DNA of 64,000 bases, taken from Azolla caroliniana. Lineage: Eukaryota; Plantae; Polypodiophyta. Below, in pieces: positions 20,321-49,300 of this stretch. Position 1 is the first letter of the stretch. Each line of letters starts with the position of its first letter. The translations under genes were made by a program, and so were the position numbers. The stretch lies in contig JBHGNT010000009.1 in the NCBI GenBank assembly GCA_043228905.1, positions 5,704,001 through 5,768,000 on the forward strand, written 5' to 3'. Below the pieces are notes generated by a model. The model was not told the origin of the DNA and made no database searches. It worked only from the letters and a program-made list of their open reading frames with translations.

Positions 20321-23300
20321 ATGATGGATAAAGGCATGGCGAGCTCGCTTCTAACAGAGAAGCTTGACAGAACCAACTACGCGTCTTGGTCCTACAAGAT
20401 GCACCAGTACCTGCTCGAGCACAGCTATTGGAGTTATGTCGAAGGAGCTAATGACGCGGCACCCGAATCGACACACAGAAACTTTCCGTCGTGGGAGCAA
20501 TTGGCGAGCAGGGTATTATACTGCTTCACGTCATGTGTGGGCGAACAACTATTGAGCTATGTTCGGGATGCAAAGACGCCGAAGGGTGCGTGGGAAAATT
20601 TGAAGAAGATCTTCGCCGCAAGCACCACAGCTAGGAAGCTTCAACTCCGACAGGAGTTGAGCAACCTACGACAACGCGACTTGTCGGTGGCGGACTATAC
20701 CTCAAAGATCAAGGATATCTGCGACTCCGTCACCTCCATAGAGGTGAACATCGAGGAGAGCGAGATGGTCCAGATCTGTCTCGGAGGTTTGGCGTCGAAG
20801 TTCGGAGCGTTCCGAACGGCTGTGTGTACCCGGGAGAATACACAGTCCTTTTTCGACTTATAGTCGATGCTCCTGGTAGAGAACCACGTGGGTGCGTCTA
20901 CAAGCACGCACACCGACAGTAGAATGTTGTACATGGAGGGAGATAGGCCCTGTGGACATGGAGGACGAGGCGAGTCGGCACGCAATGGAGGCGGCCAACG
21001 AGATCAAGAAAGAAGGCACCGAAGTGATGCCGATAGCAACTCCGGACCCTCCGGAAACAGGGGGAATCGAAGCGATGAGAACCGGCAAGGGAAGTCCATC
21101 GCGGAGTGCTGGTACTGTGGCAAGAAAGGCCACAAGGAAAGTGAGTGCTTGAAGAAGCGCGCCGATTCGGAGAGAACTGGTTCCGGGAACGGCTCTAGAC
21201 ATACCGACAAGGGAAATGGGCAGCGATCGCACTACGCCGAAGACTCCGGGAGAGCTGAAGAAGGGTCTGCCTTCGTGACGAGACACGAAGCAAACTCAAT
21301 GAAGCAGACCACCCCGAGATCGGACGAGGTGTGGTACATAGACTCCAGTGCGTCAAACCACATGACGAGCCATAAGGAGTGGTTCTCGTACCTTGAAAAA
21401 CCGATACAACCTGGAGTAGTCGCAACAGGAGACGACACTCCGCATCCGATCGCGAATGTCGGAGAAGTTCCCCTTAGCCATGTCGGGCAGAAAGGGAAAC
21501 TCATGAACGTGCTGCACATTCCGACAATCACGAAAAACTTGGTCTCGGTCGGACAGATCGTCGACCAAGGGATGGAGGTTCGGTTTACACACCTCGGGTG
21601 CTTCATTGAGGAAGAAGGCCGTGTGATTGCGCAAGGGCGCAGAGACGGGAGGATGTTCATCCTCGACTCCACTAACGGCGGCACCGCAATGTTCGCGAAG
21701 GGACAAAAGACCGAGTCGGACATCGACTTGTGGCACAGGCGGATAGGCCACGTCAACCACCAACGGCTTTAAGATCTGTAATCGAAATAGGTAGTGTTCG
21801 GATTGCCCAAATTTAGTGGCCGAAAGGCACAAATTTGTGAAGCCTGCCAGCTCGGGAGGCAACACCGACTTCCCTTCCCCAACGAGCGAAACCGGAGTTG
21901 GAACAAGCTCGACCTTATACACTCCGATGTATGGGGGCCGGCACAAAAAGTTAGTCTTGGCGGGAGCCGATATTTCGTCTCCTTCATCGACGACCACACG
22001 CGGCACACGTGGATCTACCTCATTGAGAGGAAGAGCGAAGTCTTCGACTGTTTCTAGGACCTCAAAGGGTTCGTGGAAGCGGAAACGGGACGAAAGATCA
22101 AGTGCCTACGGTCGGATGGCGGGAAAGAGTACTTTTCCGGTCAATTCAACGGTTACCTACAACAAATGGGAATTCGCCGCGAATTCAGTTGTAGATACAC
22201 GCCGGAGCAGAACGGCGTGGCCGAGAGAAAGAATCGGTCGATTGTGGAAGCGGCACGGGCAATGCTGGAGGAGAAGAGCTTGCCCAAGTTCTACTGGGCC
22301 GAGGCGGTAAGGACCGCGGTATACATCCAAAACCGGATCGGAGACAAAGTGTCGGCGCACGAGCTATATTTCGGAACGAAGCCGAACTTGCGACACTTGA
22401 GGGTGTTCGGTAGCATTGCGTATGTGCATGTACCGAAGGAGAAAAGGAGGAAGCTGGACGCAAAGGCCGAGAAATGCATATTGGTCGGTTACTCGGACGA
22501 GCAGAAGGGTTATAAGTGCTATAACCCTCGCAGCAAACAAGCGTGTGTCAGCCGCGACGTTGTGTTTGACGAGTCCGCGTCCTGGTACCTGCCCCCGACT
22601 ACGAACCTCAACTCCAATCCGAGCTCTGACGACGAGGTCAGCGAGGCCGAGATGCCTCCGAATGAGCCCGAAATCGAGACCCGCGAAGAGAGTCCGATTT
22701 CACTCCGGTTAAGTGGACCAATTGGACGACTGTGTCGGTACGACCAATCCGATGAAGAGTCGGCGAGTAGTGGAGACTCGGCCATGCATTCCCCGTGCAA
22801 GAAGCTGAGAAGACGGCTTACGCGCAAAGAGAAAGGGAAGAAGAAGGTGTCTGATTCCGGCACGGAAAGGAACGAGTCAGATCGACGCAAGTCCGACTCT
22901 GAGGGAACCGGTGATGGGTCTTTAAAGGTCAAGACCGCGTCGACCGAGAAGGCCTCGACATCGGCTAATGTGAGATTACGCCGATCTACCCGCCAGAAGA
23001 ACCCAGTTGTGCGGTTCGTATACAACGAGTACATGGCGCATCATTATGCGTACATGACCTGTGTGGTGGAAGTGCGTGAGCCGGAGAGCTACGCAGAAGC
23101 GGCGAAGGACGCGAATTGGCACGCCGCGATGGAGGAACAGATGCACGCATTGGCGGAGAATGAGACCGGGGACCTAGTTGACGCACCGAAGGGTGTGAAG
23201 CCGATCGGGTGTAGATGGGTGTACAAAGTCAAGTACAACACCGATGGCTCGGTCAACCAGTACAAGGCTCGGCTAGTGGCAAAGGGCTACGCGCAGAAAC

Positions 23301-24462
23301 ACGGCATCGACTACGATGAGACGTTTGCGTCGGTCGCGAAAATGACGACCGTTCGTGTTTTGCTCGCAGTAGCCGCAGCCAAGGGGTGGCACCTACATCC
23401 AATGGATGTAAAGAATGCGTTCCTGCAAGGTGACCTTGAGGAACAAGTGTACATGGTACAGCCCCCCGGATTTCACTCCGGAACGAAATCCTCGGCAGTA
23501 TGCCGACTGAAGAAGTCCCTTTACGGACTGAAGCAAGCCCCGCGTGCCTGGAACGCGAAGATCACGCAACAACTGCGTCGGATGGGCTTCGTCACGTCAA
23601 AATCGGACTCTTCACTGTTCATCCGGAATGGTCGACGTCGGGATACGCGTCCGGATACGCGTTCTCCCTCGGGAGTGCCGCGATCGCGTGGAGCAGTAAG
23701 AAGCAGCCGACAGTTGCACTGTCGAGCACCGAAGCCGAGTACCAAGGAGCGGCTGTCGCGACATGCGAAGCCATATGGTTGAAGCGGCTACTTAAGGACC
23801 TGCGAGAGGAGGTGTCCAATCCAACGACGATCTACAGCGACAACCTCAGCAGCATCCAACTCGCGAAGAACCCCGTTTTCCACGCACGGACCAAGCACAT
23901 TGAGGTGCACTACCATTTTGTCTGTGAGCGTGTCCTTTCCGGTGAAGTCAAACTTCAGTACGTTCCGACGGATCGGCAGACTGCCGACATCTTCACCAAG
24001 CCTCTTGGTCTGGACAAGTTGCGGCAATTCTCAGGTGCGCTCGGTTTGCGTCACCTTGACGTGCCGAACTTGAGGGCGAGAACAGTCCCGAACGACCAAG
24101 CAAGGCAGCAAGAAAGGAGCGGACACCGCGACACCGAGTCGGTTGACAAGTTCGACTTCGGATCGGCTGAAGAAGCCGCGGGCGGACCCGCGGAGAAGTC
24201 CGGAAGCGGACAGAAGGGGAGCAACCAAAGGAGAGAGCCGAAGGCAACCATGCATGGGGAAGATAACGCCATCGAGGGCGAGAAGACCGAAGACGAGTTG
24301 GAGACAGCCAACTTGGACGAGAGCGAAGACCGATCGGAGGTAGCCGAGTCGGTTCGGATGTTTGATTCAGACACGCTGAATCAACCGAGGCCCAAGCGGA
24401 AGAAAAGGCAGCAGAAGAAGCGTCAACACTGCAACAACAAAAGAGCTGATGAGGGCCAATGA
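20321..24462 (+). pseudogene. pol: B3 gag-PR-INT-RT(partly deleted)-RNase H-tail
   Basis: ORFs 20321, 20867 (CWYCGKKGHKESEC), 22073 and 23500. About 530 bp of RT including YVDD is deleted at ~23640. Confidence 0.92.
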
Positions 24463-24593
24463 GCAGACAAGCCGACCGGAAGGGTCGAAGCACGCGGAGT
24501 CGAACAGGTCGAGGAGCGTGAGCGAGGCAAGAAGCCAGGAGGAACCGATGCTGTGAAGATCCCGAAGAGCCTCAAGTTGAGCTTGAGGGGGAG

Positions 24594-24963
24594 TGTTGAG
24601 AGACAAGCTCAACATCGGCCGGATCGGCTGAAGAAGCCGAGGACCGGATCGGTTGGGACCGATTGGTTAGGCCGAGTGCATAAACCGAGAGGCCGTTAGG
24701 AAAGATATTCCGTGAGGAATATATTTGGGAGTTAGTGTAGGAGCTCTTGATAAGCATTGAAGTATTGTCAGTACTTCGATCAGTCCTTCTAGGACTTGTA
24801 TAAAAGTGCTCACTGAGCACGTCTTATGTACAGATTGAGTATTATTGTGTTTTCTCTCTCTGTCTCTCCCGAGTATACTACGTAAGCTCAAGCTCTCCAT
24901 TGAACCTGAGTTTCCTTCCTTCTGTTCGGTCTTCATACTTGCTTCCGCACGTTACTTTCTACA
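24594..24963 (+). repeat. 3' LTR of B3
   Basis: TG..CA followed by the TSD. Confidence 0.95.
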
Positions 24964-26432
24964 GTAAAGAACTCTGAGTCGACTGGTAAGGATCGAATTT
25001 ATGATGAGCAGACCCAACCGGCAAGGGACCGGTTAGCACTCGAGGAGCCAGCTGATTACAGTGAGGATACCGAACCGGCAGAAGAAGAAGTAGAGGAAAC
25101 TGAAACCGGAACCGGCCTAGACCCCGAATCGGATTCAGATGAAGAGAAAATGGAGGAGCCGGTTACCGAAGCCCAGACACGGAGATATCTTTTTAGAGAG
25201 AGAAGGGCCCCCCGGATATTTTCGGATGCAGAGCATGTGCTACTAACCGATGAGGGGGAGCCAGAAAGCTTCGAAGAAGCGAAGGATGACACCCACAACC
25301 GAAAATGGTTAAGTGCCATGCAAGATAAGATGGATTCCCTACATGAGAACCATACGTACGAATTGGTGGAGTTGCCGAAAGGAAAGCGGGCACTCCGAAA
25401 TAAGTTGGTGTACAAGTTGAAACTGGGAGATGCTGGCAACCCCCCAAGATACAAAGCCAGGATCGTGGTGAAGGGGTTCCAGTAGAAGAAGGGCGTGGAC
25501 TTCGACGAGACATTTGCCCCGGTAGTAAAGATGACCTCCATCCGGACGGTGCTGAGTATAGCAGCAAGCATGGACCTCGAGGTAGAGCAGCTGGACGTGA
25601 AGACGACATTCCTTCACGGAGACCTCGAAGAGGAGATCTACATGCAGCAACCGGAAGGATTCGTGGAGAAAGGGAAGGAGCACCTGGTTTGCCGGTTGAA
25701 GAAGAGCCTCTACAGGTTGAAGCAGGCCCCCTGGCAATGCTACCGGAAGTTCGACTCCTTCATGACCGATCAAGGGTACCACAAGACACAGGCCGATCAC
25801 AGCATGTTTGTGAAGAAGTTCGAAGGAGGCGACTTCCTGATACTCCTTCTGTACGTGGATGACATGTTGATCATCGGACGGGACCAAGTCAAAATATGGA
25901 TGCTGAAGAAGGCTCTCAACCGGACCTTCTCAATGAAAGACTTGGGTTCGGCAAGACAGATGCTAGGGATGCATATCATCCGGAACCGGCCAACGAAGCA
26001 ACTGTGGCTGTCACAGGAGAAGTACGTGACAAAGGTGCTTCAGCACTTCAACATGTTGGAAGCGAAACCGGTCGGATCGACACTCCTGGCAAACTGCAGA
26101 TTATCCGGTAAGCAAAGCCCGAAGATGAAAGTAGAGAAGGCTGATATGATGAAGGTTCGATATGCCTATGCCGTCAGGAGCTTAATGTACGCAATGGTGT
26201 GTACCCGACCGGATATAGGATACGCAGTCGGAGTGGTCAGCCGGTTTATGAGCAATCCCGGCAAGGAGCACTGGAACGCAGTCAAATGGATAGTCCGGTA
26301 CTTGAAGGGCACTTCGAATATGTGTCTCCGATTCGGCTCCGGTAAACCTCAACTTGACGGTTTTACCAATTTGGACATGTCGGCTGATGTGGATAGCAGC
26401 CGGTCTACATCCGAGTATGTAATGACATTTGC
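24964..26432 (+). pseudogene. pol: C2 linker and RT
   Basis: ORFs 25150-25485 and 25495 onward (QLDVKTTFLHG, YVDDML). Confidence 0.9.
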
Positions 26433-27796
26433 GTTTGTAAAGGTCGACTCGTTTCCGCATCGTCCTTCTTTTTCGCATTCCTTGTTTCATGTCTTTTTGA
26501 TGGGCCTTGCTCTTCTATTCTTTTTCTCTTTTCTTCGACGAACACCTCGTGGTTGTCACACATCACCGCCACGAGTATGGTGTTGTCGTCCACCGGATCC
26601 GACCATTCGGTTATACTTTGTACACTTCGATCCGCAAGCTCTACTTCATTCGAAGTGACTTTTCCCTTCTTCTCATATTTGAGAACGGAAGTCCAAAACT
26701 TTGCTCCCGCTCTAGCAGCTTCAGTCTTGTCTTTCCCGATTCTTATTCCAACCGACGCAGCATAGTCCATTGCATCCACATGAGTCGCATCGGCATCCTC
26801 CATAGCTTTCTTCATTCCCCCTCTTTCAAAATTCACCCGTAGGGGTCTTCTAGTCTCGCTCGAGCAGATCATGTTGTCATCTATGTACACGATATTTTGT
26901 CGGATCGCCTCTCGAAGGCTCGCGCAATCCCTTCTCATGTGGTTCATGCTATCGCACCACACACATCTAAAAAGTTCTTTTCCTTTGGGCCCCCGACGAT
27001 TCATGTTGGCTAGCGTGACCTTCTCGAACTTCTTTGCCAGTTCTTCGATGACGTCATCACCAATCTTCTTTTCTTCCACGTCACATTGTTTTGGCGGCTC
27101 AGCTACTTTCGGCAGTCTTGCTTTCTCCGTAACAGTCGATCCCGCCAAGTCGGTGTCATCAACCCACTGACGACGCTTGTCGAGCCTATTGCATGCTCGC
27201 TTTACCGGAACCCAGTCCACCACAAGCCCGTTCTCTTGGGTATCATCTTCGAGAAGAGTCCCCAACTCCCTTCTATCCTTCATGTCCACGGCCTTCAGGA
27301 AGTACAAAGTCTTGTCCTCTTCAAGTAGCACTTGATCCGTGTTGGGGAGACGACCAAACATCTGGTCGAATTCATCGTACACGCTCGAGGCGCTCATCTT
27401 CTTATTCTTCTTCTCTATCCACTTCATCAGGGCATGTCGAGTCATCCTTGTTGAGTCTTTAGTTGCGAACTCCGCTAATATCGTTTTCTCGAACTCATAC
27501 CATGTTGTCTTACCTTCTTGAAGTTCGATGATGTTTCTTTGAACGTTGTTGGCGACAACTCTCTTGAAGCTTGCGATTTGACGTGCTTCGGACACGTCCC
27601 TCTAATTCATTTCCCTTCTATATGCATAAAGGAACTTCGTAACGTTCCTTCCATCGAATTTGCCCTCGAGCTCTACGACACGATTGACAGCCTTCTCCAC
27701 GCTCACGTCGTATTCCCGAGATCTCATCATTTGCTCAACGATTAGAATCATCCTTTCGAGCTCTCCCACTTGGTTGCTTGAGGATGCCATCTCCAA
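26430..27796 (-). pseudogene. gag: Gypsy D gag
   Basis: Homologous to E gag; CCHC knuckle; one internal stop. Confidence 0.88.
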
Positions 27797-32622: not shown

Positions 32623-33415
32623 TGTCGTGAAGAATTTCGGTCAGAGGCGGAAACCAGGAAATGTCGGCTACATCGGCGGGGTGCAGCATGTGCACTCACC
32701 CTTGTACATTTACTGTGAATAACGAGGGCGCCTTTATGGCACTGAACAGTAGTCAAGTCAGGACAGAGAATCCCATGTAAGTCGGGATTTATCCCGCATT
32801 GTAACGCATCCCTCTCCTTGTTCTATAAAAGGAGGGAAGCGCCCTTTGTGAAGGGGTTGCCCATTTTGTATTAGTAGGGTATACCGTTAGACGGAGTGAT
32901 GTTCTCTCTCTCTTGTTTTAGGGTTTCTTCTTCTTGCTCCCCTCTTTTCTTTTCTTCTTCTTCGTCCTTCTGTGCGTCGAGCCTTGGCATCTAGCGTTAC
33001 AGTTTTCTGCCCTATACTCTGTGCAAGACCCCGTTCGGTGCAACAAGCCCGAGAGCTCCCCGACCGGTGGCTTGGCAGTAGACAACGGTTGTATCTCGTG
33101 CAGCCTAGGTCCGACTTGAAGTCGGTGTTGATTCTTGTTGTCTTGTAAATACATATACATGTGGTTGTGCATATTCGGGTCTCTGTTGGTGTGCGTGTGT
33201 GTGTCTTAGTGTTTTTTTCTTGCTTATGTACATGTTCGTGCGAGTGTCAATGTTAAGCGCCTACTCTCTCTCTCTCTCTCTCCCTCCGGTTGCTTCTAGT
33301 GTGCTCCTGAGGTGCCCCAAAAGGAGTGAAGCGCGGCTTCCTACGCTTCGTCACTCCCTAGTCCAAGACCCATGTGGTCCCGCCTTTCTCTACGCATGCG
33401 CGTAACAACGCGACA
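32623..33415 (+). repeat. 5' LTR of F
   Basis: Direct repeat of 36975-37749; TATAAAA at ~32824. Confidence 0.93.
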
Positions 33416-33452
33416 TCATTGGTGAACCCGACGTGAAAGGCGGCAAGGGAGG

Positions 33453-34559
33453 ATGGAATCGGAAGACGATGAACTCGCGGTGATGGTGGCCGAAGTGGTG
33501 TTGGAGTCGGCACGAGTGGTGATGAGGCGAGAAGCAGCGCAACAAGCGGTCGAGCGAGTGGTCGAAAGAGTCGGTCGTTTCAATGGGGACGAAGTCCCAT
33601 CTTACTTGGAAGCCTACAACACGGAAATGGAGGAGCGAGACGTGGACGAAGCATTGAGGCTGGAGTTCTTCTGTCGGGTTGTCGCCGTCTGTATGCACGC
33701 GGAAGTGAAGGAGCTCTGACAAGCTCATAGTTCGTGGGAGGCCTTTGAAGAGGCGCTCATGCAGGCATGTGGAGGACAGCGGAAGAGCCGGGGACTGCAC
33801 GACTTCGACCAGTGGGTAGCATCGGCAAAGACCCACCGGGGCGCAACGAAGGCGTTCCGAGAGTTCGAGCGACGGCTTGCTCGGCTCCTGGAGCGGGAAC
33901 AAGGTTTGGTGGGGGCGGACAAGGTCCTATTGTTCGTCAGGTCGATCGACCGAGCGGAACGGGAGGCCATCATGATTGAGCTCGAAGACGACGACGGAGC
34001 GAATGGGCTTACGGAGGACTGGTCAAAGGTCAGAAGGGTGTGCCAACGGCTAGACAACGAGCGAGCCGAGAAGGCTAAGAGGAAGGGGCGCGACGGCGTG
34101 CCATCACAGCAGGGAGAGGCCAAACGGCAAAGGGAGTTGGCAAGGGTCGGCGTTGAGGCCCGGATTGCGAAGGCATACGCAGCTCTCGAGGCGATGCTCG
34201 AGGAAGAGGAAAGATCGAGGCCGCACGCCAAGACTGAGGAGATGGACTTGCCCCACGCAATGACGGAAGATCGGTACAATGGTACCACAGGAGAGGGTGC
34301 GGAACAAAACGCCCTCTCGACTTGCGGAGATAGAACGGCCAAGGACGAGGCCGAGATAACGATCGCGGGATCAGAACATTGGAACCAACGGTGTCGGGCG
34401 TGTCAGCCCAAAACCCCGGTCATTAGAGAAGGAAGCCAAGACGAGGCTTGCGCGATCGGTAAGGAGACAACCGTCGACCACGAAGAGCCGGTGGCTACGG
34501 ACGGGCGATTCTTTGAGCCTTCCCACACTTGCTCCCGAGACGATGGCAGTCGGGCCTGA
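33453..34559 (+). pseudogene. gag: gag-like ORF of F (one in-frame stop)
   Basis: AVERVVERVGRFNG..DKVLLFVRSID..GLTEDW aligns with E gag; no zinc knuckle seen. Confidence 0.82.
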
Positions 34560-36974
34560 GTGCCCACGTGAGTCCCAAGCATAGGAAGGCGGCGGCAAGA
34601 GACCAAGAATCACCGGCGAGACGATACGGGGAAGGAGCGGACGAAAGCCCACGGACCCGATTCCGGAGAAGTCGGCATTCGGGCCCGTATGCCCATGTAA
34701 GACTGAGGAGATGGATGGCGGTACCGAGGAGTCTTGGCACGATGCCAACGAAGATGGATGGGAGATGGCCAGCGAAAAGGGCGACGAGGGGACCAAGGAA
34801 CGACCCGACCGGGGACCGAACCACGCGACGCTCCAATACGGGTGGAGCATGATCCGGTCGTGGATTGTTCGATCGGGGCCGGATTCGGCATAAAGGTGCC
34901 GAAACGGGAGAGGGTGCGGGACGAGCCGCCCTCTTTTACATGGGGAGAAAGACCGACCGAGCGAAGGTCAAGAATTGGAAGGGGGGGTGATCAAAGGTTC
35001 GGAAAGAGTCTGGCAAGATCGGCATCGGAGCTGAAACTCCGGACATTGGAGAATCAAGCTCAAGCGGGGCTTGATTGATCACAGAGCGGATGCTATCCAC
35101 CGACACCACTAAAAGGGGCGGTGGCCCGGACGAGTCGCCAAAAGACATCGCGAAATCAGTTACGCCACATCCTATCCGGAGACTACGGCTGTTCGGCCGA
35201 CGGGGCAACGTAAGACCGAAAGAGATGGAAGATGGAGGCGGGAACGCAGCAAGGAGAGTGACGACGAGTTACGGAGAAGTACGGGGGATGAAGAAGAGAA
35301 CAAAGACCGGTCCCATGAGATCTTCACACCAATCCGGCGGTCAGCCCGAGTGCCGGCGTGAGTCCTATAGGGGAGGCCGGTGGCAACAGAAAAACGGGAC
35401 CCGGAAATCCGGAGAATGACGAACGGACCCGGACGAGAACCGGGCGGAGCGAACTCCCAGATAACCATTCTGGGAGGGAGGAAGAGAGCAGGCCTACGAA
35501 GAGGCCGGGAACACGGTACGTCGGTACCACGGGAGAGGGTGTGGAGCAAGCCACCCTCTTGACTTGCGTAAGAAGGAAGACCCGGGATAAGGGTCAAGGA
35601 TACGGGGAGCCCAAGGAGGATCCTTCACACCGGATCTAGAGACTTTGGTAGTTGGCAGCGCGGTTGGCGTAAGACCAAGATACTGACGGTGGCGGCGGGG
35701 GGACAAGGGCGGGCAAACCGAGGTCCCACGAAGATCCTCACACCAATCCGGCGGTCGGCCCGAGTGCCAGCGTGAGTCCTATAGGGGAGATCGGTGGCGG
35801 CAGGTGAACGTGATTGGACAACGGAAGCAGAGAAAGAAGGTATCAGGCCGGCAAGGCGGCTACGGACCATCTCCAACCTTCCGGCAAGGTGAGTGGGTGT
35901 AAGGAAGTCCGGTCCTACGGGATCCCCACACCGAACCAGAGACTCCGGCTATTCGGCCAACGTGGCAACATGAGACCGAGAGAGGTTCGTGGCGGTGGGA
36001 AACGGGACCCGACTACGCGGAAGACACGAGGAGAATCCGGGAGGGACTCAAACAAAGACACCCTGAATTTCGGCAAGCAACGAAACGAAGACCGGTCCTA
36101 TGGGATCTTCACACCGTTTCGGAGACCACGGTTGTTCGGCCGACAAGGCAACGTAAGACCGAGGGAGAAGGAAGGTGGCGGCAAGGGACGGGACCTGACA
36201 TCGACAAAGGTCGGTAAGACGGGACGGACGAAGTGCGGAGCCCTTACCGGCCGGTTACGGTAGCGGAAGGAGCCGGTAGGGCAAACTCGGGGATGTGTGT
36301 CGGGCCGAAAAGGCACACTTGGGACGGAACAAGAATCTCGCAAGTGGCCATCGTGAGCCGGATCGAAGCATGACTACTGGACAGTGGTCGGCACGGGCGG
36401 TGCCGAACAAAGGAAGTGGAAGTCGGCACAAGGGAGGTGCCGGGAACGAGGTGACGGGTGCCTAGTGGACTGCACAGGGTCGGAGTCGGGGGATCGCAAG
36501 AGAGGCCGGAGGAGGATCCTCCACACTCGCTTCGTAGATTTCGGTAGCTCCATCGAAGTAGCGAAGACTGACACGGCAAGCCCGGGGTGACAAGATAGTG
36601 GGGGCGAGGGGACGACGGCAAGCGGAAGACTCAGGACTTGTAGCAGCAGCACGAAGACAGGAAGGGCCAACCAAGCCATTACGGGCGTTCTTCAAGCGGA
36701 GGACATCGGGCATATGGCGGAGAACGGAGCGTGCATACAGCCAAACAAGGGCCAGCGGAAGTACGCGTACTACGAAAATCGCGGCGAAGGACCCATCGAC
36801 GGGTTGAACGAGTCTACGGGGAGGTAAGTGCGAAGGAAGAACCGAAGCCGACGGTTCAAACCGGCAGCAAGCCGGGATGCGGATTACGGAAGACCGGTTT
36901 CTCACCAGCCGATATCTCTCACCCTTCACCGGATTTGGCACGTACCGATGGATGTGCAGTTTGGTGGGGGCGGA

Positions 36975-37749
36975 TGTCGTGAAGAATTTCGGCCAGAGGC
37001 GGAAACCGGGAAATGTCGGCTACATCGGCGGGGTGCAGCATGTGCACTCACCCTTGTACATTTAGTGTGAATAACGAGGGCGCCTTTATGGCACCGAACA
37101 GTACTCAAGTCGGGACAGAGAATCCCATGTAAGTCGGGATTTATCCCGCATTGTAACGCATCCCTCTCCTTGTTCTATAAAAGGAGGGGAGCGCCCTTTG
37201 TGAAGGAGTTGCCCATTTTGTATTAGTAGGGTATACCGTTAGACGGAGTGACGTTCTCTCTCTCTTGTTTTAGGGTTTCTTCTTCTTGCTCCCCTCTTTT
37301 CTTTTCTTCTTCTTCATCCTTCTGTGCGTCGAGCCTTGGCATCTAGCGTTACAGTTTTCTGCCCTATACTCTGTGCAAGACCCCGTTCGGCGCGACAAGC
37401 CCAAGAGCTCCCCGACCGGCGGCTTGGCAGTCGACAACGGTTGTATCTCGTGCGGCCTAGCTCCGGCTTGAAGTTGGTGTTGATTCTCATTGTCTTGTAA
37501 ATACATATACATGTGGTTGTGCATATTCGGGTCTCTGTTGGTGTGCGTATGTGTGTCTTAGTGTTTCTTTCTTGCTTATGTACATGTTTGTGCGAGTGTC
37601 AATGTTAAGCACCTGCTCTCTCTCTCTCTCCCTCCGGTTGCTTCCGGTGTGCTCCTGGGGTGCCCCGAAAGGAGTGAAGTGTGGCTTCCTACGCTTCGTC
37701 ACTCCCTAGTCCAAAACCCCTGTGGTTCCGCCTTTCTCCACGCACGCGC
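36975..37749 (+). repeat. 3' LTR of F (last 11 bp displaced to 45215-45225)
   Basis: Matches the 5' LTR up to the E insertion. Confidence 0.93.
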
Positions 37750-37884
37750 TGTCGGGGTAGTTGTGGTTCGTGTGGCGAAGTCGCGGGGACTAAGGTTAAG
37801 GGGAGTTGAAGGAACTTAAGTTTAATAAGGCTTGTATGGTGATGATAGAATGGTTAAGGATAGTAAGATGAAGAGTTACAAGTA

Positions 37885-37942
<58 letters not shown>

Positions 37943-38103
37943 CGAGCATAGATAAAAGATAGAGACAATGTATGATTCACGAAAGAAGATTGAGACAAAG
38001 TATGATTCAAAGAACAAGAGTATATGATATAAACATGATGTATATTAAAAATATAATATTTTACCAACTTTACAATCCTTGATCGCAAGATGAATCTTTT
38101 CAA

Positions 38104-38169
38104 TACCGACCCTGGATTTGAACCCTCGACCTCAACTTCGAAACGAGAGGTTCTCCACCCAATGAGCTA
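38104..38169 (-). promoter_or_regulatory. tRNA-like cassette, sense orientation, LTR E (copy at ~44633-44698)
   Basis: Minus strand reads TAGCTCATTGG ... GAGGGTTCAAATCC. Confidence 0.6.
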
Positions 38170-38426
38170 GTCTTCTTCAATTGATTGTATTATTTTTTTA
38201 CTCTCTCTTGATTCCTTGATTCCCTTTTGTTTTCCTTTCCTCTCTTTTTATAAGTATTTCCATGCATATGGTAATGTCATGCATGTAATGCATGAGTTAC
38301 ATCTGATGCATGATCGCCATTTGGCGCACATGCATTGCATGTGATGCATGATAGCCATCATGCTCATTTGAGCTCCCATGTATTGGGATAAGTATAATGA
38401 TGGATATAACCCTAAAACAAATAACC

Positions 38427-38619
38427 TAGCTTAGTGGTGTATGGTTTATGCTTGATATACAAGGTTGAGGGTTCAAGTCCCTCAATTTTACTTAATACAA
38501 TATATAGCTTCATTCTTATATCATGAAGCACATTTATTATACACTTTTACAAATAAATAGCCTAGCCTAGTGGTGTGTACATTGTACATCGTATATAAGG
38601 ATGTGGGTTCAAGTCTCTC
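38427..38619 (+). promoter_or_regulatory. Two tRNA-like A/B-box cassettes in LTR E (copies at 44956 and 45092)
   Basis: TAGCTTAGTGG 38427 with GAGGG-TTCAAGT-CCCTC (B-box 38470); TAGCCTAGTGG 38563 with GGTTCAAGTC 38606. Confidence 0.7.
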
Positions 38620-38673
38620 AAATATTATTAAATACAACATTTAAGCTCATTTTTATATCGTGAAGCACATTCT

Positions 38674-41600
38674 TCACGACACCCACCCCCTCTGAACTTG
38701 CACATTGGTTGTGCAGAGTTCATCCAACACTTCTTCCGATTCTTTTAGTTCTTCTACTTCTTCATAAAATTCAGGCTCTAATGACTCCCTCCTTTTAAAT
38801 ATTTTAATCCTTTTTCCTGCAATTGGGATACGAATTTCTGTCCCATCTAATTCATTGAGGAAATATGTGGCTTTATCTGTTATTTTCCTAACTTCATAAG
38901 GTCCAAACCATCTTTTTGCAAACTTCCGAATAGTACTGTATTGATTATCTAGGCTATTATCATATACTAATACCCAATCTCCCTCTTGCACCTTTCTTGG
39001 TCGTATTCTTTTCATCTTGTCAAATCTGTCCTTATTCTTGATTCTTGCCTCTTTCAATCTAGTAGCTGCTTTTTCTATGTCTTCTATCCTTGATTGAAGT
39101 TGTCGTATTCGAACCGCAAGTAAATCTTCCCTACTCATTTCTGATTCCCAAGGCAACACAGCCCATGTAGTTATCTTTTCTTCAATTGGCATTATTGGCT
39201 TCTGTCCTGTGATTAATTCTGCAGGCATATATCCAGTAACAGTGCTGTGAGTTGTCCTATTAGCCCATAGTGCATAGGGTAAGGTTTTTGGCCAATCACT
39301 AACCCGTCCTCTACATGCCTTTGCCAAAGCTTTGACTATTGGCCCATGTCCCCTTTCTACCTTTCCATTAGCTTCTGGATTGTACGCCGTTGTCAAAGAA
39401 AGCCAAATTCCTATTTTGTCGAAAAAATCTTGAGCTTCCGCAGAATTGAGTTCTCCCCTATCTGCCACTATCTTCCCGATACATCCATATCTACAAACAA
39501 TGTCCTCCAAGATGAATTGACATACTCCTAATGTCCCTTTTGTTCTCAATGAACGACCTTCCACTTGATTTGTTAGATCTTCTCTAGCAAGAACCAAGTA
39601 TCTCTTTTGTCCGACTCCAAGTGGCATTGTTACCAAATCTATCATCCACTTGTAATGCACCCCCGGTGAGTATGTTGGGTGTAATTCATCACAAAATTTT
39701 ACATTTGAATAATATTGACAAGTGGGACAAGTTTCCACATACTTTTTTATTTGCTCATAGTATCGAGGCCACCAAAATCGTTCTTTAATCTTACTGAAAG
39801 TGGCCCACACTCCTCGATGACCAGCCCATTCTTTGTCATGCAACTCTTTGATTATCTCCTTTCTTTGCCCTTCAGAACCTATTACTCTTTGCGGGTTTCC
39901 AGTCTTGGTTTTCGGATGTCGCCATAGATATCCTTCATACAGGAAGAACTTATGGGCTTTCTTGCGAAACTGTGCGAACTCTTTTCCAGATCGACCTTTG
40001 TACTTGTTAGGGGTTTGTAGGTATTTCCCTATTTCCTTGAATTCATCTTCATACTCCTCTTCTAGAAACTGCATTCCTCCTTCCCGAGTAATGCTTGTGG
40101 TAAGGACTGTTTGTTCTTTGTCCTCATCGTCCGAGTCTGGAATCTCCTCTTCCTCATACCTTGCTCTTGATAACATATCTGCTACTGCATTTCTATTCCC
40201 AGAGATATGTCGAACTTCAGGGTTGATTGATCTAATATAGATACACCATCTTAACATGGCTTGATCTGGAATATCACAATTAGCTATGATACCCAGAATA
40301 GGCAAACAATCTGTTTCTATTATTACTTCAGCACCAATTAAGTAATCTCTGTCTATCTTTACAGCTGTTACTATCCCCCATAGGTCTCTTTTCACCTGTG
40401 CATATTTTCTTTGTCGACCACTAAGAACCTTTGCCCCGAATCGGACTGGATACCTTTCTTCCCTATCTTGTTGGCTTATCACCCATCCAATTCCAATGGG
40501 ACTAGAGTCTACTGTGAGATATATGGGCCGGGTGTAGTCTGGTTGCTTTAATGGTGGAGCTTGTGCCAAGTAGTACTTCAATTTCTTCATTGCCTCTGAA
40601 TGCTCTTCACTCCATTCAAATGTCTCTCCTTTTCTTAGGAGTCTATATAAAGGTTCAGATAAATGGGCATAATGCGGAATCCATTTACAGTAAAAAACAC
40701 ATACCCCCAGAAACCTTCGTACTTCTGAGATGGATGTACATTCCTCTTGCATATTTTGAATTGCATTGACCTTGGTTGGGGATGGCTTTCTCCCATACGG
40801 GCCACACATATGACCAACTATTAATATCTCTTTTGCCCCAAATATTGACTTCGCCCCTGATAAGGTCAAATGCACTTCTTCCATCCTTGATAGCACCTTC
40901 TCACAATCCTTGATATGATCAGCAACGAATTGACGGCAACCACTTTCGTCCAATTCCTCGTTCTTCTCTTCCTCCTTGCATCCCTTAATTGGAACATCAT
41001 CTAGAAAAGGCATTGTAATATGAGGAATAAAATCACGAAGTACCTTGTTCATTCCATTCATCATATGCGCCACTGAGTTGGTCGCTCCTTGCGGCAAGGT
41101 GCACATCCGTACTAACCCTATAGGTGTCTTGATAGAAGTTATATCTCGACTTTTGATAGCAAGTTGAAATTGATCATATCCGGAATAAAGGTCTCCCATT
41201 GAATATATAGCTCTTCCTGCAAACATCTCAGCAAACTCATCCACAATTGGTCCTACTCCCGAGTTTCGGATTGTTACCTTATTCACGGGTTGCATATCTT
41301 GGATAAATCGGAGTCGCCCATCTTTCTTTAACACAGTGAACCATCGACTCGAGTAAGGAGCGTTCGATGGTTCCAAGATACCCATCCTTATCTTTTCTTT
41401 CAAAAGTTCTAATAGTTGAGGGATTCTAGCCCTAGGCATGGGTATTGGCTTAAAGTTCCATGGAATATGAGGGATAGTGAATATAACCATGGGCTCCACA
41501 ATTTCTGGATCCACACACCCTATTTCTTCCGGTTGGAATGCGAACGCCTTTCCATGCCTTTTTAACATCTCCCTGAACTGCTTTTCTTCAGCGGGTAATA

Positions 41601-41925
41601 GGAAGTCACCCCCTCCTATTTTCATCCCTTGTATTGTTTCCGGAGTAAACACATGTCCTACCTTTCGTGGGTCTCTGATCATTGGCTCTGTGGCTGCTTC
41701 TTTGATTGCCTTTTCACTATCCCCTGGAAGTGGAGCAGCAATAGGACGAACCTTCTTCTCCACTGTCTTGTATTTTGTTAGTACATGTGCTTCATGATCC
41801 TTTCGAGCAACTTCTTCAATGACCTCATACATCTTGATTGAATGGACAGGAACTTGGATTTCGTTGTCTTCTTCCATTGCTTCCAAATGAGTTATTGTAT
41901 CTTCAAAACTTAATTCTTCAAACAT
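38674..41925 (-). CDS. pol: Gypsy Pol (RT-RNase H-integrase); frame open upstream to the slippery site at ~42138
   Basis: PQGATNS, FLDD, VDSS..TDC..ADMLSR, H-x6-H..CxxC, DDE integrase, GPY; no chromodomain. Confidence 0.95.
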   Translation of the reverse strand: MFEELSFEDTITHLEAMEEDNEIQVPVHSIKMYEVIEEVARKDHEAHVLTKYKTVEKKVRPIAAPLPGDSEKAIKEAATEPMIRDPRKVGHVFTPETIQGMKIGGGDFLLPAEEKQFREMLKRHGKAFAFQPEEIGCVDPEIVEPMVIFTIPHIPWNFKPIPMPRARIPQLLELLKEKIRMGILEPSNAPYSSRWFTVLKKDGRLRFIQDMQPVNKVTIRNSGVGPIVDEFAEMFAGRAIYSMGDLYSGYDQFQLAIKSRDITSIKTPIGLVRMCTLPQGATNSVAHMMNGMNKVLRDFIPHITMPFLDDVPIKGCKEEEKNEELDESGCRQFVADHIKDCEKVLSRMEEVHLTLSGAKSIFGAKEILIVGHMCGPYGRKPSPTKVNAIQNMQEECTSISEVRRFLGVCVFYCKWIPHYAHLSEPLYRLLRKGETFEWSEEHSEAMKKLKYYLAQAPPLKQPDYTRPIYLTVDSSPIGIGWVISQQDREERYPVRFGAKVLSGRQRKYAQVKRDLWGIVTAVKIDRDYLIGAEVIIETDCLPILGIIANCDIPDQAMLRWCIYIRSINPEVRHISGNRNAVADMLSRARYEEEEIPDSDDEDKEQTVLTTSITREGGMQFLEEEYEDEFKEIGKYLQTPNKYKGRSGKEFAQFRKKAHKFFLYEGYLWRHPKTKTGNPQRVIGSEGQRKEIIKELHDKEWAGHRGVWATFSKIKERFWWPRYYEQIKKYVETCPTCQYYSNVKFCDELHPTYSPGVHYKWMIDLVTMPLGVGQKRYLVLAREDLTNQVEGRSLRTKGTLGVCQFILEDIVCRYGCIGKIVADRGELNSAEAQDFFDKIGIWLSLTTAYNPEANGKVERGHGPIVKALAKACRGRVSDWPKTLPYALWANRTTHSTVTGYMPAELITGQKPIMPIEEKITTWAVLPWESEMSREDLLAVRIRQLQSRIEDIEKAATRLKEARIKNKDRFDKMKRIRPRKVQEGDWVLVYDNSLDNQYSTIRKFAKRWFGPYEVRKITDKATYFLNELDGTEIRIPIAGKRIKIFKRRESLEPEFYEEVEELKESEEVLDELCTTNVQVQRGWVS

Positions 41926-42074
41926 ATCCTGAATTTCTTCATCATCATCTATTAATCCAGAACACTTAAAGTACTCGAAAGCATTTTGTATTTTATTATT
42001 ATTTACTTTTAGTATAAAAGTAGCACCATTAGATGAGATTGTACAAGGAATATCTTTATTTACATTATTATTTA

Positions 42075-42138
42075 TGGGGTTTTCTTTTATGCTCGGGCTA
42101 TCACAGCCCCTACCTGTAAAAGCCCTATCTAAAAATCC
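42075..42138 (-). other. Predicted -1 ribosomal frameshift signal
   Basis: G GAU UUU UAG followed by a GGGCU..ACAG/CUGU..AGCCC stem; loop GGGG can pair with downstream CCCC. Confidence 0.75.
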
Positions 42139-44243
42139 TGGGAAAACTCTTCATCCATCTCTTGAATTGGATGTTCCCTCAAGCATTCTTTGTTTCTTTC
42201 ATGGTTGGGCCTCACGGTTAAGAATTGGACAGTCTTTCTTCCATCTTGACTCTTGATTCTCGCGAAAGCCGAACCATCATCAATAACCTTTGTTTCCATC
42301 CTCACTGCGGTGATGTAGGGCTGGCCAAGGATGACGGGGTAGGTTGATCGATCCTGCACAAAGAAATTTTGATTCACCGAGACATCACCAATTGTTACCT
42401 TCACACTAGGACATGCTCCGAATAGATCCTCCGTAGTTTCTGTGGCAGCTCTTATTTTCCACCCATGATTCTTGTCGATCGGCCATCGTCCTCGAGCGTA
42501 AAATTCCGATGACATCATGTTAATCTCTGATCCATGATCAATCAAAGCAATACATGGAATTTGCTGCTCCCCAATTTTTGCAGGTGCCTCCGTTGTTGCT
42601 CGAGCCCAATGGTCCCTTGTATAGTGACTCCTATCCCCTTCATGGACGCCAACATCATTCTGGTTTTTTACACTTGCAGCATTGATGGTGCCACCATACA
42701 AATCTTGGAGTGTTGTTGCACACCCTCCCGTAATTTCCTCCGTCACCTGTCTCTTCCTTCTAATAATATCTATGATAACTTCATGAAATTCTTTCTTTGC
42801 TATACCCAACACTTCTCTTAAAGTAAATTCTACCTTACTATTTAATATTCTTGTTTCTAGTACCTTTTTTATATCCGTCGTTGTTTCTATGTCTGAGGCA
42901 AGCTTGAAAGATGGGCCTGTCTTTCCTTTTACTTTATCAGCTTCCTTCGGCTCAATAGCACCCTTTTCCATCTCCCTTCTCTTTTGTTCTCGTGTCTCAT
43001 GTCTCTTTGTCGAATCAGCTTCCTCAGCTCTCTTCCGCTTCTCTTCCACTAGCACATCTTGTGCATTCACTTGGGCGAATGCTGATAGCGCGTCTACTGG
43101 ATCACTCCATCCAGTGAAGTTTCGTATTTCATCTCCCGCTCTTTTTAATTCATCCACTCGAACCTTCCCTTTTCTTGCATAATCCATCACATCTTGCCAA
43201 AAGCCAGATCCACCATATGAGTCTTCTACGCGCAATCCTAAGGTTGCCACGGATTGTATCGCTTGAGTCGTTTCTCTCTCGGCATCTTCCATTAACCTTT
43301 TCATTCCTCCTCGCCCGAAGTTGAGTTGAAGTGGTTGTCGAGTCTCAGTTGAGTGAATCTTGCCATCTTGATAGTAGATTTTATTATGATTAAGAGCATC
43401 CCTATGCTCTTGACAATCTTTCTTCTGGTGGTCGATACTATCACACCACATACACCTTCGGACCATTCCACCTCCTTGCCTTGATGAAGTCGAGCTTTGT
43501 CCCGATTCTAGCTTCGTCACTTTGATCGACAAGTCTTTCATGCCTTTCACTAATTCGTGTAAGAGTGATTCTTCTACTTTCTTTTCTCCTGACTCGTTCC
43601 CTGTTTCTTCATCATTTCTGTCGGGCAACTCCATAAACCATAACTTTCTTTTGCAGAAATGGGCGCACGCCCTTTTCACCTCCTCCCAATCTTCGGTAAG
43701 TCCACTTGGACTATTCTGATCTTCTAAAAGCATTCCCAAGTCCTTCCTGTCTTTAATATTAGTAGCTTGTAGAAACAATATTACTTTATCTGGCACTATT
43801 ATATTTCTATCTCTAACATTTAGTTGCTCAAATCTTTCAGAAAACTCTTTTAATACTTCCAAAACACTTAAATGTTTATTAGACTCTACCCAATCCATGA
43901 AAGCTCGCCCTGTCATCCTTGACATATCGTTGAGGTTGTATTCATTGAGTAATGCCCTTTCGAATGTTGTCCATGTCTGATTCTCCCTTTGGAGCTCTTG
44001 GATCTTCTCTTGTAGCCCAATCGCAGCGACTCGACTAAAGCTATTAATTTTTGTAGCTTCGTCGACACCGCGTTTAAGCATTTCTTCATTATAAATCTTC
44101 AAAAATCTTGTTAAATTTATACCTTCGAAGATTCCTACTCGTGCGAGAATATTGTCGACGGCTTTGTCGATGCTTGCCATCATCCCTTGTTCCCGCATCA
44201 CTCGTTCCATCATCGTACACATAAGCCTCATTTGCTCCTCCAT
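42129..44243 (-). CDS. gag: Gypsy Gag-protease
   Basis: 704 aa; CMWCDSIDHQKKDC knuckle; ALIDHGSEIN and ILGQPY protease motifs. Confidence 0.93.
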   Translation of the reverse strand: MEEQMRLMCTMMERVMREQGMMASIDKAVDNILARVGIFEGINLTRFLKIYNEEMLKRGVDEATKINSFSRVAAIGLQEKIQELQRENQTWTTFERALLNEYNLNDMSRMTGRAFMDWVESNKHLSVLEVLKEFSERFEQLNVRDRNIIVPDKVILFLQATNIKDRKDLGMLLEDQNSPSGLTEDWEEVKRACAHFCKRKLWFMELPDRNDEETGNESGEKKVEESLLHELVKGMKDLSIKVTKLESGQSSTSSRQGGGMVRRCMWCDSIDHQKKDCQEHRDALNHNKIYYQDGKIHSTETRQPLQLNFGRGGMKRLMEDAERETTQAIQSVATLGLRVEDSYGGSGFWQDVMDYARKGKVRVDELKRAGDEIRNFTGWSDPVDALSAFAQVNAQDVLVEEKRKRAEEADSTKRHETREQKRREMEKGAIEPKEADKVKGKTGPSFKLASDIETTTDIKKVLETRILNSKVEFTLREVLGIAKKEFHEVIIDIIRRKRQVTEEITGGCATTLQDLYGGTINAASVKNQNDVGVHEGDRSHYTRDHWARATTEAPAKIGEQQIPCIALIDHGSEINMMSSEFYARGRWPIDKNHGWKIRAATETTEDLFGACPSVKVTIGDVSVNQNFFVQDRSTYPVILGQPYITAVRMETKVIDDGSAFARIKSQDGRKTVQFLTVRPNHERNKECLREHPIQEMDEEFSQDF

Positions 44244-44282
44244 TTCTCCTCGTCGCCGCCTTCACGTCGGGTTCACCAAATG

Positions 44283-44417
44283 TGTCGGGGTAGTTGTGGT
44301 TCGTGCGGCGAAGTCGCGGGGACTAAGGTTAAGGGGAGTTGAAGAAACTTAAGTTTAATAAGGCTTGTATGGTGATGATAGAATGGTTAAGGATAGTAAG
44401 ATGAAGAGTTACAAGTA

Positions 44418-44471
<54 letters not shown>

Positions 44472-45210
44472 CGAGCATAGATAAAAGATAGAGACAATGT
44501 ATGATTCAAGAAAGAAGATTGAGACAAAGTATGATTCAAAGAACAAGAGTATATGATATAAACATGATGTATATTAAAAATATAATATTTTACCAACTTT
44601 CCAATCCTTGATCGCAAGATGAATCTTTTCAATACCGACCCTTGATTTGAACCCTCGACCTCAACTTCGAAACGAGAGGTTCTCCACCCAATGAGCTAGT
44701 CTTCTTCAATTGATTGTATTATTTTTTTACTCTCTCTTGATTCCTTGATTCCCTTTTGTTTTCCTTTCCTCTCTTTTTATAAGTATTTCCATGCATATGG
44801 TAATGTCATGCATGTAATGCATGAGTTACATCTGATGCATGATCGCCATTTGGCGCACATGCATTGCATGTGATGCATGATAGCCATCATGCTCATTTGA
44901 GCTCCCATGTATTGGGATAAGTATAATGATGGATATAACCCTAAAACAAATAACCTAGCTTAGTGGTGTATGGTTTGTGCTTGATATACAAGGTTGAGGG
45001 TTCAAGTCCCTCAATTTTACTTAATACAATATATAGCTTCATTTTTATATCATGAAGCACATTTATTATAGACTTTTACAAATAAATAGCCTAGCCTAGT
45101 GGTATGCACATTGTACATCGTATATAAGGATGTGGGTTCAAGTCTCTCAAATATTATTAAATACAACATTTAAGCTCATTTTTATATCGTGAAGCACATT
45201 CTTCACGACA
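44283..45210 (-). repeat. 5' LTR of E
   Basis: Adjacent to the Trp PBS. Confidence 0.96.
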
Positions 45211-45283
45211 GCGCGTAACGTGACAGCGTGCCGATAAAGAGTCGGTTTGGTGGAGAACCCCATGCCGGAGTGAAGGGGGAATT

Positions 45284-46340: not shown

Positions 46341-49300
46341 ATAAAGTTGTTGATCGAAGGCTGGAGATAGCTGGACAATTTGGTGGCAAGAACATCACGG
46401 ATTTCCTTGCTACCTATCGGAACGAGATGCAACAGAGGGATGTCCATGATTTGAAACAAATTTTTAGTTTCAAGCGTGTGGTGGAACCAGGAATCCGCGG
46501 AGTTCGAAAAGGCGCTTCTCATTGATTACATGTTTGAAGACTTGTCATGAATGACTTGGCATACGCTAATGATTTGGATCAAGAAGAAAGGGAAGAATCT
46601 GTGTGTATCGGGTGTATATGCGGAATGCGACTAGAAGTGCAACCGACTTTCGAGTGCTGATCAACGAGTTCTTGATGGAGATAGAGTCCCGCTATTCCTG
46701 AAGGCAATGGATATGAAAGACCGGCAAGAATTGGGCAGTTTTTTGGAGGACAAAACGCAACCAAATGGCTTGGTAGCAAACTAGGCGGCGGTGAAAAAGG
46801 CTTGTAGCCGTCTTGATAAGCGTCGACAATGGAAAGAGGAAACTTATATGGAGAATCCACAATCGTGGAGGAGGAAGACACCTATGACAGTCAAGCCTAA
46901 CAAGCTGATCAACAATTTCGACAAGAAAGTGATGGAGGACTCTATAATCGAAGAGCTCACCAAGAAGTTTGAAGTGGTATCGCTGGCCAACTTAAGTTGA
47001 GGCAGGCGCTAGGTAAAAGAAGCATATAGATGTGTGTGGTGCGACACCTTCGAGCACATGCGAAGGGAGTGCACTGACTTGCCAGACGTGATACGCAAGA
47101 ATGTCGTCTATTTGGATGGCAACATGAGTCATTCGAGCGAGACCCGGAAGCCACTATGAGTGAACTTCGGAAGAGGTGGGCTGAAAAAGATTGTGGAAGA
47201 GGAAATGCAAGGCATGTGGAAGCTATGCACTACGCCGCATCGGCCGAGCTACGAGTTGGAAGAGAGAATATAAAGACGATCAAGCTGGGAGCTGGGTTTT
47301 GACCGACAATCTTCGAGTGCGAAAAGAAAGGCAAAATCAATTTGGAGGATGTACGACTTGCTAATCAGAATGTGTGATGAGTTACTGGATGGTCGGATCT
47401 AGTCGATGATAACACAAGCTTTGCGGAGGTTGTGTGTGACAACTATGAAGCTCTTGTCGAAGAGAAGAGGAAAAGAACTGGTGAAGAAGATGGCACATCA
47501 AAGCATCACAATACGAGGAACGCAGGGAAATAAGGGCAAGCCTAACGTACGCCACGAAAAGAGATAGGAGAAACAAGCATGAAGCCCAGTGGATCGAGCC
47601 AACCTTCTCGGATGGAAGTTGATGAATCTATGAAGACAAGAAAAGAAGGAGCAGCGCTGACTTACAAGCTAAGGTCGGACATACAACAAACAACTGACTT
47701 GCGGAAGGTCCTTGAAGAGAAGGTTTTAGACTGTCATGTCGACCTTACTTTGAGAGAACTGCTTGGGATCGCTAAGGAGTTCCATGATACTATCGTGGAC
47801 CTAATTAAGCGGAAGTGGCAACAGTCGGATGAAGAGGAGGTGAAAACAAGTGTCATAACCATGGCAAGATCAGAAGAGGAGGAGGAAGAAGAAGTGATGG
47901 CGGACAGCCATTACTCTCGGCCTCATTGGCCAAGACCGACAACAAAGACACCAGTGAAGATCGGGGAGAAGAAAGAGACCGTGGTAGCCTTGATTGACCA
48001 TGGTTCAGAGATCAATCTCATGTCGACTAAGTTCTACAAGAAAGGAAGATGGCTGATTAATACAAACCATGGATGGAAGATTCCAATGGCAATGAAGGCC
48101 ATTGTGAACTTGTACGGAACTTGCCCCAATGTTAAAGTCACGATCGGGGATATGGAGATGGATCAATACTTTTTCGTGCAAGACTCGGCTTCGCATCGTA
48201 TCATCCTAGGACAACCGTATATCACATCGTCTTGGATGGAGACCAAGGTGTTTGATAACGGAGTGGCCTTCGCGTGAGTCAAGAGCTTTGACATTCAAAG
48301 ATTTGTTCAATTCTTGACGGTGTGAGCTAATCACGAAAGGAACTGAGATAGCCTTGGAGGCAAATCCTCGGATTTTTAGAGCAGACTATCACAACGTGGG
48401 GCACAAATAGTCCGAGCAATCATAAGTCCCCACAAGGAAACCGAGTGTGTGGATTGCAAGGAGATGCGACATGTGTCACACCTAGCGATGCATGTAAACT
48501 AACACTACTCAACAAGAAGGACAAGCGTTGGATTCAAGACTTCGAGAAGGCGTTGAAAGAAGAAAGCATAATAGGAGAAGAAGAATTCGTGACTCATATT
48601 CTAGAGGAAGCCTCATTTAACAACACCATCAGCAAAATCGAGGAAGTCGTGGACTTGAGCTATCCTCATGATCAACGCGCGATTTCGGTTAACTCCGTCA
48701 ACATGTACACTATCATCAATGAATATCATCAGAGCATTTTGATGGAGGAAGCTAACGTCAACACAAAATATAAAACGGTGTATAGGAAGATCAAGCCAGT
48801 TGCGGTTCCGCTACTGAAAGATAGCTGGCAAAAGATGAAGGAAGTTGCTAATGATCCAAGCTTCAAGGATCCAAAGGCAATAGGTCATGTCTTCAGCGAA
48901 GAGATGAAAGGAAAGCTACGAGTTGGAAGGGAGGATTTCCTCCTCCCTGAAGAGGAGCGAATGTTCCGCGGAATGCTTGGGAGACATGGGAAAGCTTTCG
49001 CCTTCCCTCCACAAGAGATCGGATATGCCGACCTGAAGATTATAGAGCCAATGGTGATATTTACAGTGCCTCATGTACCTTGGAACGTCAAGCCGATACC
49101 AGTTCCAAGAGCTCACATTCCGAAGTTGATTGAGCTTCTAAAGGAAAAGACTAGGATGGGAATTCTTGAGCGGTCCAATACTCCCTACTACAATAGGTGG
49201 TTCACGGTGCCGAAGAAGAATGGATCGTTGCGATTCATCCAAGATCTTCAACCCGTCAACAAGGTGACAATTCAGAATGCTGGAATCGATCCGAGTGTGG

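Follow-up and report, generated by a model that had tools for sequence, protein, structure and literature searches.

In alpharetroviruses the protease lies in the Gag frame, and the split between Gag-PR and Pol is known there. Rous sarcoma virus, a member of this group, enters pol by a pseudoknot-stimulated -1 shift, at about 5%, and in this respect resembles the plant element described here (PMC5009743). G_GA is among the listed tolerated variants of X XXY YYZ heptamers (PMC5009743), and G GAU UUU followed by a nearby stop is a tested -1 site of PEMV (PMC4737148). The same heptamer, with the stop at it or 3 nt after it, is present in PEMV RNA2 (an umbravirus) and RCNMV (a dianthovirus) (PMC4737148), so that the use of GGAUUUU by dianthoviruses, stated in an earlier note on the present DNA, is supported, and it works in umbraviruses as well (PMC4737148, PMC5009743). 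Among plant retrotransposons, Ogre and Retand, of the Tat group, keep GAG-PROT apart from RT-RH-INT, as does the element considered here (PMC6317226). The Phygy clade, as described in REXdb, has a 4-bp NCGN target duplication, a tRNA-Trp primer, no chromodomain and a compact internal region; its polyprotein organisation is given as 'ND', and the REXdb table lists no lineage in which GAG-PROT overlaps RT-RH-INT (PMC6317226).

We analysed a window of 64,000 nucleotides from the fern Azolla caroliniana, for which the earlier note had proposed a conserved -1 frameshift located after the protease of an LTR retrotransposon, here called E. Judged from the sequence, the E junction is very probably a programmed -1 ribosomal frameshift at G GAU UUU, stimulated by a pseudoknot predicted 6 nt downstream.

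Element E and the junction of its reading frames

E is a young, high-copy Ty3/gypsy LTR retrotransposon of 7,461 bp on the minus strand (37750-45210), with the following parts:

45211..45214, second copy at 37746-37749: target-site duplication GCGC, of the NCGN type
44283..45210, minus strand: 5' LTR, TGTC...GACA, 928 bp, 98.0% identical to the 3' LTR (15 mismatches)
44262..44278, minus strand: primer binding site, complementary to the 3' end of the host tRNA-Trp(CCA)
42129..44243, minus strand: ORF1, Gag-protease, 704 aa from the first AUG, ending in ...SQDF*, with a DUF4100 match
42243..42575, minus strand: retropepsin-type protease domain with D-H-G as the catalytic-position motif; the fold matches DDI1 and retroviral proteases
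42132..42138, minus strand: slippery heptamer G GAU UUU, in the ORF1 frame
42129..42131, minus strand: ORF1 stop UAG, the first half of the 6-nt spacer UAGAUA (42131-42126)
38674..42150, minus strand: ORF2, in the -1 frame relative to ORF1, with a linker of about 120 codons, RT, RNase H and integrase
38682..38693, minus strand: polypurine tract, recognised from its sequence
37750..38681, minus strand: 3' LTR, from LTR comparison

The TG...CA LTRs, primer binding site, polypurine tract and the order GAG-PR-RT-RH-IN are those of Ty3/gypsy elements, and Pfam scans of Pol and of its C-terminus found no chromodomain, extra RNase H or extra ORF in E. The 4-bp NCGN duplication accompanies both the window copy (GCGC) and all ten of the fetched E copies. 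With this duplication, the tRNA-Trp primer, the lack of a chromodomain and an internal region that is likewise compact, E carries the hallmarks of the Phygy clade, to which it probably belongs; its length is slightly below the listed Phygy range of 7,656-9,968 bp (PMC6317226). The nearest named homologues of its proteins come from moss, liverwort and fern (Physcomitrium, including Physcomitrium patens, Riccia and Adiantum), and the viral contigs searched held no relatives. A search of sequencing runs listed no RNA data set among the holders. Locus L221 (44-1521) contains three tandem tRNA-Trp(CCA) genes, about 700 bp apart.

The surroundings of E are rich in repeats. Two 779-bp direct repeats (32623-33401 and 36975-37749, 94.7% identical; span 32623-37749) flank a Gag-like fragment at 33519-34043, and the second of them adjoins the 3' LTR of E, suggesting a nested insertion. 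Several multi-kb segments with 85-99% identity, at 557-9413 and 16501-26390, are probably other nested elements, and an AT-rich array of units of about 150 bp with internal inverted symmetry occupies 12369-14011.

Measured from stop to stop, ORF1 comprises 710 codons (44261-42129) and ORF2 1158 codons (42150-38674), the latter running into the 3' LTR. The two overlap by 22 nt, with ORF2 in the -1 frame and open throughout, and the first AUG of ORF2 is codon 68 after the slippery site. The earlier note had read the end of Gag-PR correctly as CAG GAU UUU UAG (heptamer 42138-42132, stop 42131-42129); it had also described the -1 frame as stop-free for '~70 codons', of which the openness stands, whereas the figure is that of the distance to the first AUG, the whole of ORF2 being open.

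That the frame break follows the protease, as had been claimed, is upheld by the retropepsin fold of the domain preceding the site. The last 148 residues of ORF1 fold in this manner in a model of mean pLDDT 63, which matches the RVP domain of human DDI1 (Foldseek E 8e-5; VIA Z 8.5, rmsd 3.6, 107 aligned). This fold search found a protease that was missed both by a sequence search of solved structures and by Pfam on the full ORF1 protein, where the RVP_2 and Asp_protease_2 matches were weak and below cut-off. The usual catalytic motif of retropepsins is D-[ST]-G; in E, D-H-G stands at 42531-42539 (minus strand), in a part of the model that is unreliable (pLDDT below 50), and it is present in 18 of 18 aligned homologues. 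This motif may have to do with bulk production of the protease along with Gag.

The site and the predicted pseudoknot in copies and families

A junction search of the host genome returned 470 first-look candidates for E. Among the 30 loci fetched, which were selected as near-identical and do not count as independent evidence, GGATTTTTAG is present in every one, and 28 are open in the -1 frame from the site to RT; of the remaining two, one is interrupted by an earlier stop and the other by an indel in the linker. Both ORFs are unbroken in six of ten full-length copies, with LTR identities of 98.7-100%. A single fused ORF, the observation that the earlier note had named as speaking against a frameshift, occurs in none of these 30 junctions or ten full-length copies. 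The parts of the predicted pseudoknot of E, and the corresponding features of a decayed relative in the window, element G, are as follows:

42114..42125, minus strand (42125-42114): stem 1, 5' arm, GGGCUUUUACAG, from folding and covariation
42107..42113, minus strand: loop GUAGGGG, whose GGGG (42110-42107) supplies the 5' arm of stem 2
42095..42106, minus strand (42106-42095): stem 1, 3' arm, CUGUGAUAGCCC, from folding and covariation
42076..42079, minus strand: CCCC, forming the 3' arm of stem 2 beyond a loop of 15 nt, from the stem-2 pairing test
48370..48379, plus strand: G GAU UUU UAG of element G
48383..48433, plus strand: pseudoknot of element G, with stem-1 arms at 48383-48390 and 48406-48413 and with GUGGGG (48396-48401) facing CCCCAC (48428-48433)

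The stem of E and the pairing of its GGGG loop (42110-42107) with CCCC (42079-42076) had been noticed earlier and were found again; stem 1 comprises 12 positions, including one U-U mismatch and one U-G pair. In element G, likewise, GGATTTTTAG (48370-48379), GTGGGG (48396) and CCCCAC (48428) lie where they had been reported. The description of G as a relative with preserved pairing holds for the site and the pairing, but the element is decayed, with stops in Gag-PR and two broken stem-1 pairs. G belongs to an older family; among its 30 fetched loci, GGATTTT survives in 24 (followed by TAG in 19 and by TAA in 5), and 15 are still open to RT. A truncated Gag of a G-related family lies at 26462-27742 of the window (minus strand); complete relatives elsewhere in the genome have the same site and pseudoknot.

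Taken singly, the two window copies are unremarkable. In single-sequence folding neither site stands out (z of -1.59 and -0.61 for E, -0.21 and +0.21 for G), Rfam yields no family at gathering score, and the 10-mer GGATTTTTAG, allowing one mismatch, matches the window 7 times against 5.8 expected, which is not above chance. The case therefore rests on position, frame and conservation across families.

For this conservation we used the best 80 of 186 loci from a metagenome scan, of which 40 are distinct at <90% identity and 30 at <80%; the loci are related to one another and derive mostly from one assembly series, so that the counts overstate independence. The ORF1 stop was located in 78 loci, the other 2 running off the contig end. 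Of the 78, 72 have G G(A/G/U)U UUY in frame at no more than 10 codons from this stop (60 GGATTTT, 7 GGATTTC, 2 GGGTTTT, 2 GGTTTTT and 1 GGTTTTC); the six that lack it (L083, L114, L116, L135, L147 and L157) show deletions, truncations or point changes. RT is in view in 65 of the loci with a site, where Pol is in the -1 frame in 62 and in +1 in 3, and between the site and RT no stop interrupts 61 of those 62. The linkers of 33 representatives, amounting to 4,150 codons in each frame, contain 267 stops in frame 0, 1 in -1 and 360 in +1. The -1 frame opens just 3 nt upstream of the heptamer in 7 loci, which confines the shift to this position.

The constraint extends to codon choice. Asp is encoded by GAU in all 69 terminal Asp-Phe pairs (background 62.5%), and a G precedes this GAU in 67 of the 69 (background 29%). 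Among the best 120 of 222 protein homologues, 72 end in DF* or GF*, another 25 extend 4-5 residues further and the remaining 23 differ; a residue without a G-ending codon precedes DF/GF in none of these 72 (background 28%) and in none of the 22 non-redundant tails (chance 0.0007). Distant cluster representatives end at or just after DF/GF in only 27 of 79, many of the others being fragments or gene models.

Covariation across copies, put forward earlier as a check, appears as compensatory changes in stem 1 over dozens of diverged families. For the RNA alignment and the stem-2 test, 38 rows were used, omitting L131 (a deletion) and L159 (decayed). RNAalifold predicts an 8-pair stem from 6 nt past the heptamer, with two-sided changes in 6 pairs. 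Stem 1 has 72 cells changed on both sides against 31.8 in shuffles, a number that none of 500 shuffles reaches, the shuffle ignoring relatedness; its pairing is 79% in register and 28-39% in slid registers. The upper 4 pairs of the E stem are poorly conserved, being unpaired in 9-21 of the 38 rows. Stem 2 varies as GGGG/CCCC, GCGAGA/UCUCGC, GCAGGGA/UCCUUGC and AUGAGGGU/ACCCUCAU, and pairs with its own partner at a mean of -10.7 kcal/mol as against -8.9 with swapped partners (0 of 10,000 permutations, and the same for a 28-row subset), the own partner surpassing every downstream control window in 32 of 38 rows. The stem 2 of E, of just 4 bp, is among the weaker ones, and swapped partners pair with it equally well in 27 of 37 cases. 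The alignment thus predicts an H-type pseudoknot 6 nt downstream of the heptamer, with a compensatory stem 1 and a partner-specific stem 2.

Readings of the junction

At E, a heptamer lies in the overlap of two ORFs in -1 relation, with a predicted structure at 6 nt, which is the make-up of a -1 signal. The pseudoknot would make ribosomes pause while GAU occupies the P site and UUU the A site. The majority would terminate at the adjacent stop and release Gag-PR, and a minority would slip by -1, from GAU UUU to GGA UUU, the tandem slip reading ..Q D F L D R A F.. and yielding Gag-PR-RT-RH-IN. With the protease in the Gag ORF, upstream of the shift, it would be made one-to-one with Gag, and the RT-RH-IN enzymes at a lower, fixed ratio. 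Sequence, frames, conservation and covariation are observed directly, and from them we infer the RNA fold in vivo, the slippage and the product ratio.

The frame break could conceivably be accounted for in other ways. An Ogre-like intron, very unlikely but the foremost of the rivals, would remove the stop and join protease to RT, with UUUUUAG as the 3' splice site or the loop GU as donor. Ogre elements do splice in this way (PMC6317226), the E linker is AU-rich (GC 0.33), and some Physcomitrium and Riccia gene models have a common join point (after ..DFGE and ..RRKPL). However, the AG is not conserved, UAA or UGA standing in 21 of 40 representatives, and the occurrence of all three stop codons at the end of ORF1 (UAG 19, UAA 14, UGA 7) speaks against a splice acceptor; apart from one in the 3' arm of stem 1, no GT or AG lying within 60 nt of the site is common to half of the representatives; the acceptors differ between gene models; and, in a test at the DNA level, no stop interrupts the Pol frame of the linker downstream of the heptamer, an openness that an intron would not require. 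The 16 longer database proteins that join protease to RT (15 from Riccia, 1 from Physcomitrium) do so by joins of 22-157 aa that skip the junction or cut it at varied points, and the Riccia protein P0044 ends in RDF*; they look, therefore, like gene-model bridges over the junction. Varied protease-RT joins around it are seen in the Riccia and Physcomitrium models P0123-P0138, P0045, P0058 and P0121, and such joins are probably predicted introns bridging the frameshift. One singleton, P0228 (45% identity), joins protease to RT via a near full-length linker and may be a true single-ORF fusion.

Less likely still is separate translation of Pol, by reinitiation, by internal initiation at a linker AUG or from a subgenomic RNA. 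Every listed linker does contain in-frame AUGs, but the first of them lies anywhere from codon 0 to 108 past the site, the frame is open from the heptamer, and such translation would account neither for the invariant G-GAU nor for the constant distance of 6 nt to a covarying pseudoknot. Slippage of RNA polymerase or reverse transcriptase on the U run, giving in-frame templates, is a yet fainter prospect: RT slippage at shift sites has been reported (PMC5737552, PMC5737442), but the run here has no more than 5 U, with fewer in the GGAUUUC families, the constraint keeps to the codon phase, and no fused copy occurs among the 30 E junctions or the ten full-length E copies. A chance mutation in dead copies, for which the decay of element G and of many other copies might speak, is effectively excluded, the same break occurring in copies whose ORFs are both intact and whose LTRs are nearly identical (the six full-length E copies mentioned above) and being common to moss, liverwort and fern homologues. 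Programmed -1 frameshifting appears by far the most probable reading. A conserved -1 signal of this kind, with dozens of natural covarying variants, would fill the REXdb gap on Phygy organisation, would show protease-with-Gag stoichiometry in a plant retrotransposon, and would flag gene models spanning the junction with probable false introns.

A sister family and the relation to known systems

The metagenome loci L087 and L088 group together in a clade (99/98) in which the arrangement is altered: the ORF1 frame reads AG GUU UUU, the same pseudoknot follows at a 5-nt spacer (1 nt closer), and stops after the site number 10 in -1 and none in +1/-2. The L087 family is also abundant in the window's genome, with 931 first-look candidates (G000 loci L161-L200 and L211-L220). 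Of 30 distinct copies, 29 have AGGTTTTT and 27 a UGA in the -1 frame directly after the site; over the next 100 codons +1/-2 is open in 23 and -1 in none. The site is present in all ten of the full-length regions fetched, and in each Pol becomes open at this one position in +1/-2; both ORFs are unbroken in three of the ten, and in three the LTRs agree at every position over about 1.1 kb. Downstream of the site, the peptide encoded in the Pol frame is a homologue of the one in the -1 families, and the five U's of AG GUU UUU permit UUU re-pairing at -2. A natural intermediate between the -1 and the candidate -2 sites is seen in L128 (1258-1264), with G GUU UUC, a 6-nt spacer and Pol in -1.

On balance, the sister family seems to reach Pol by a -2 slip, the lineage having switched frameshift direction along with the closer pseudoknot and the site AG GUU UUU. 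Less probably, the family may be mobilised in trans by a -1 family, or may use a +1 slip, which would lead to the same Pol frame; the -2 slip is preferred over +1 because re-pairing at UUU GAC or GAC UAG would be poor. In engineered constructs, a spacer shorter by 1-2 nt favours -2 over -1 in vitro (PMC3458567), a rule of which the sister family would be a natural test. If the -2 slip is real, the ancestral -1 families and this one would offer the mRNA-tension model two naturally matched cases, and a nuclear genetic element would provide an instance of -2 frameshifting driven by a pseudoknot.

The closest counterpart of the sister site is the arterivirus nsp2TF -2/-1 site GG_GUU_UUU, with which it shares RG_GUU_UUU and a -1-frame UGA directly after it; in PRRSV, however, the stimulator is a protein complex on a C-rich motif 11 nt away, whereas that of the sister family would be the pseudoknot at 5 nt (PMC4937337). 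The literature searched, which lay outside most subscription journals and the Repbase and GyDB entries, contained no description of the present signal in Phygy or of a -2 site in a retrotransposon. Compared with Rous sarcoma virus, E is a Metaviridae-type element of seed-free plants, with another heptamer and a simpler predicted pseudoknot. PEMV and RCNMV, for all the identity of the heptamer, use a bulged hairpin and long-range 3' pairing, where a local H-type pseudoknot is predicted for E (PMC4737148). In Ogre and Retand the separation consists of a stop or spacer, spliced in Ogre, as opposed to the overlapping frames and apparent recoding signal of E (PMC6317226). Pseudoknot-driven -1 frameshifting is itself already known; what appears to be new is a well-supported candidate signal of this type in a Phygy-type retrotransposon.
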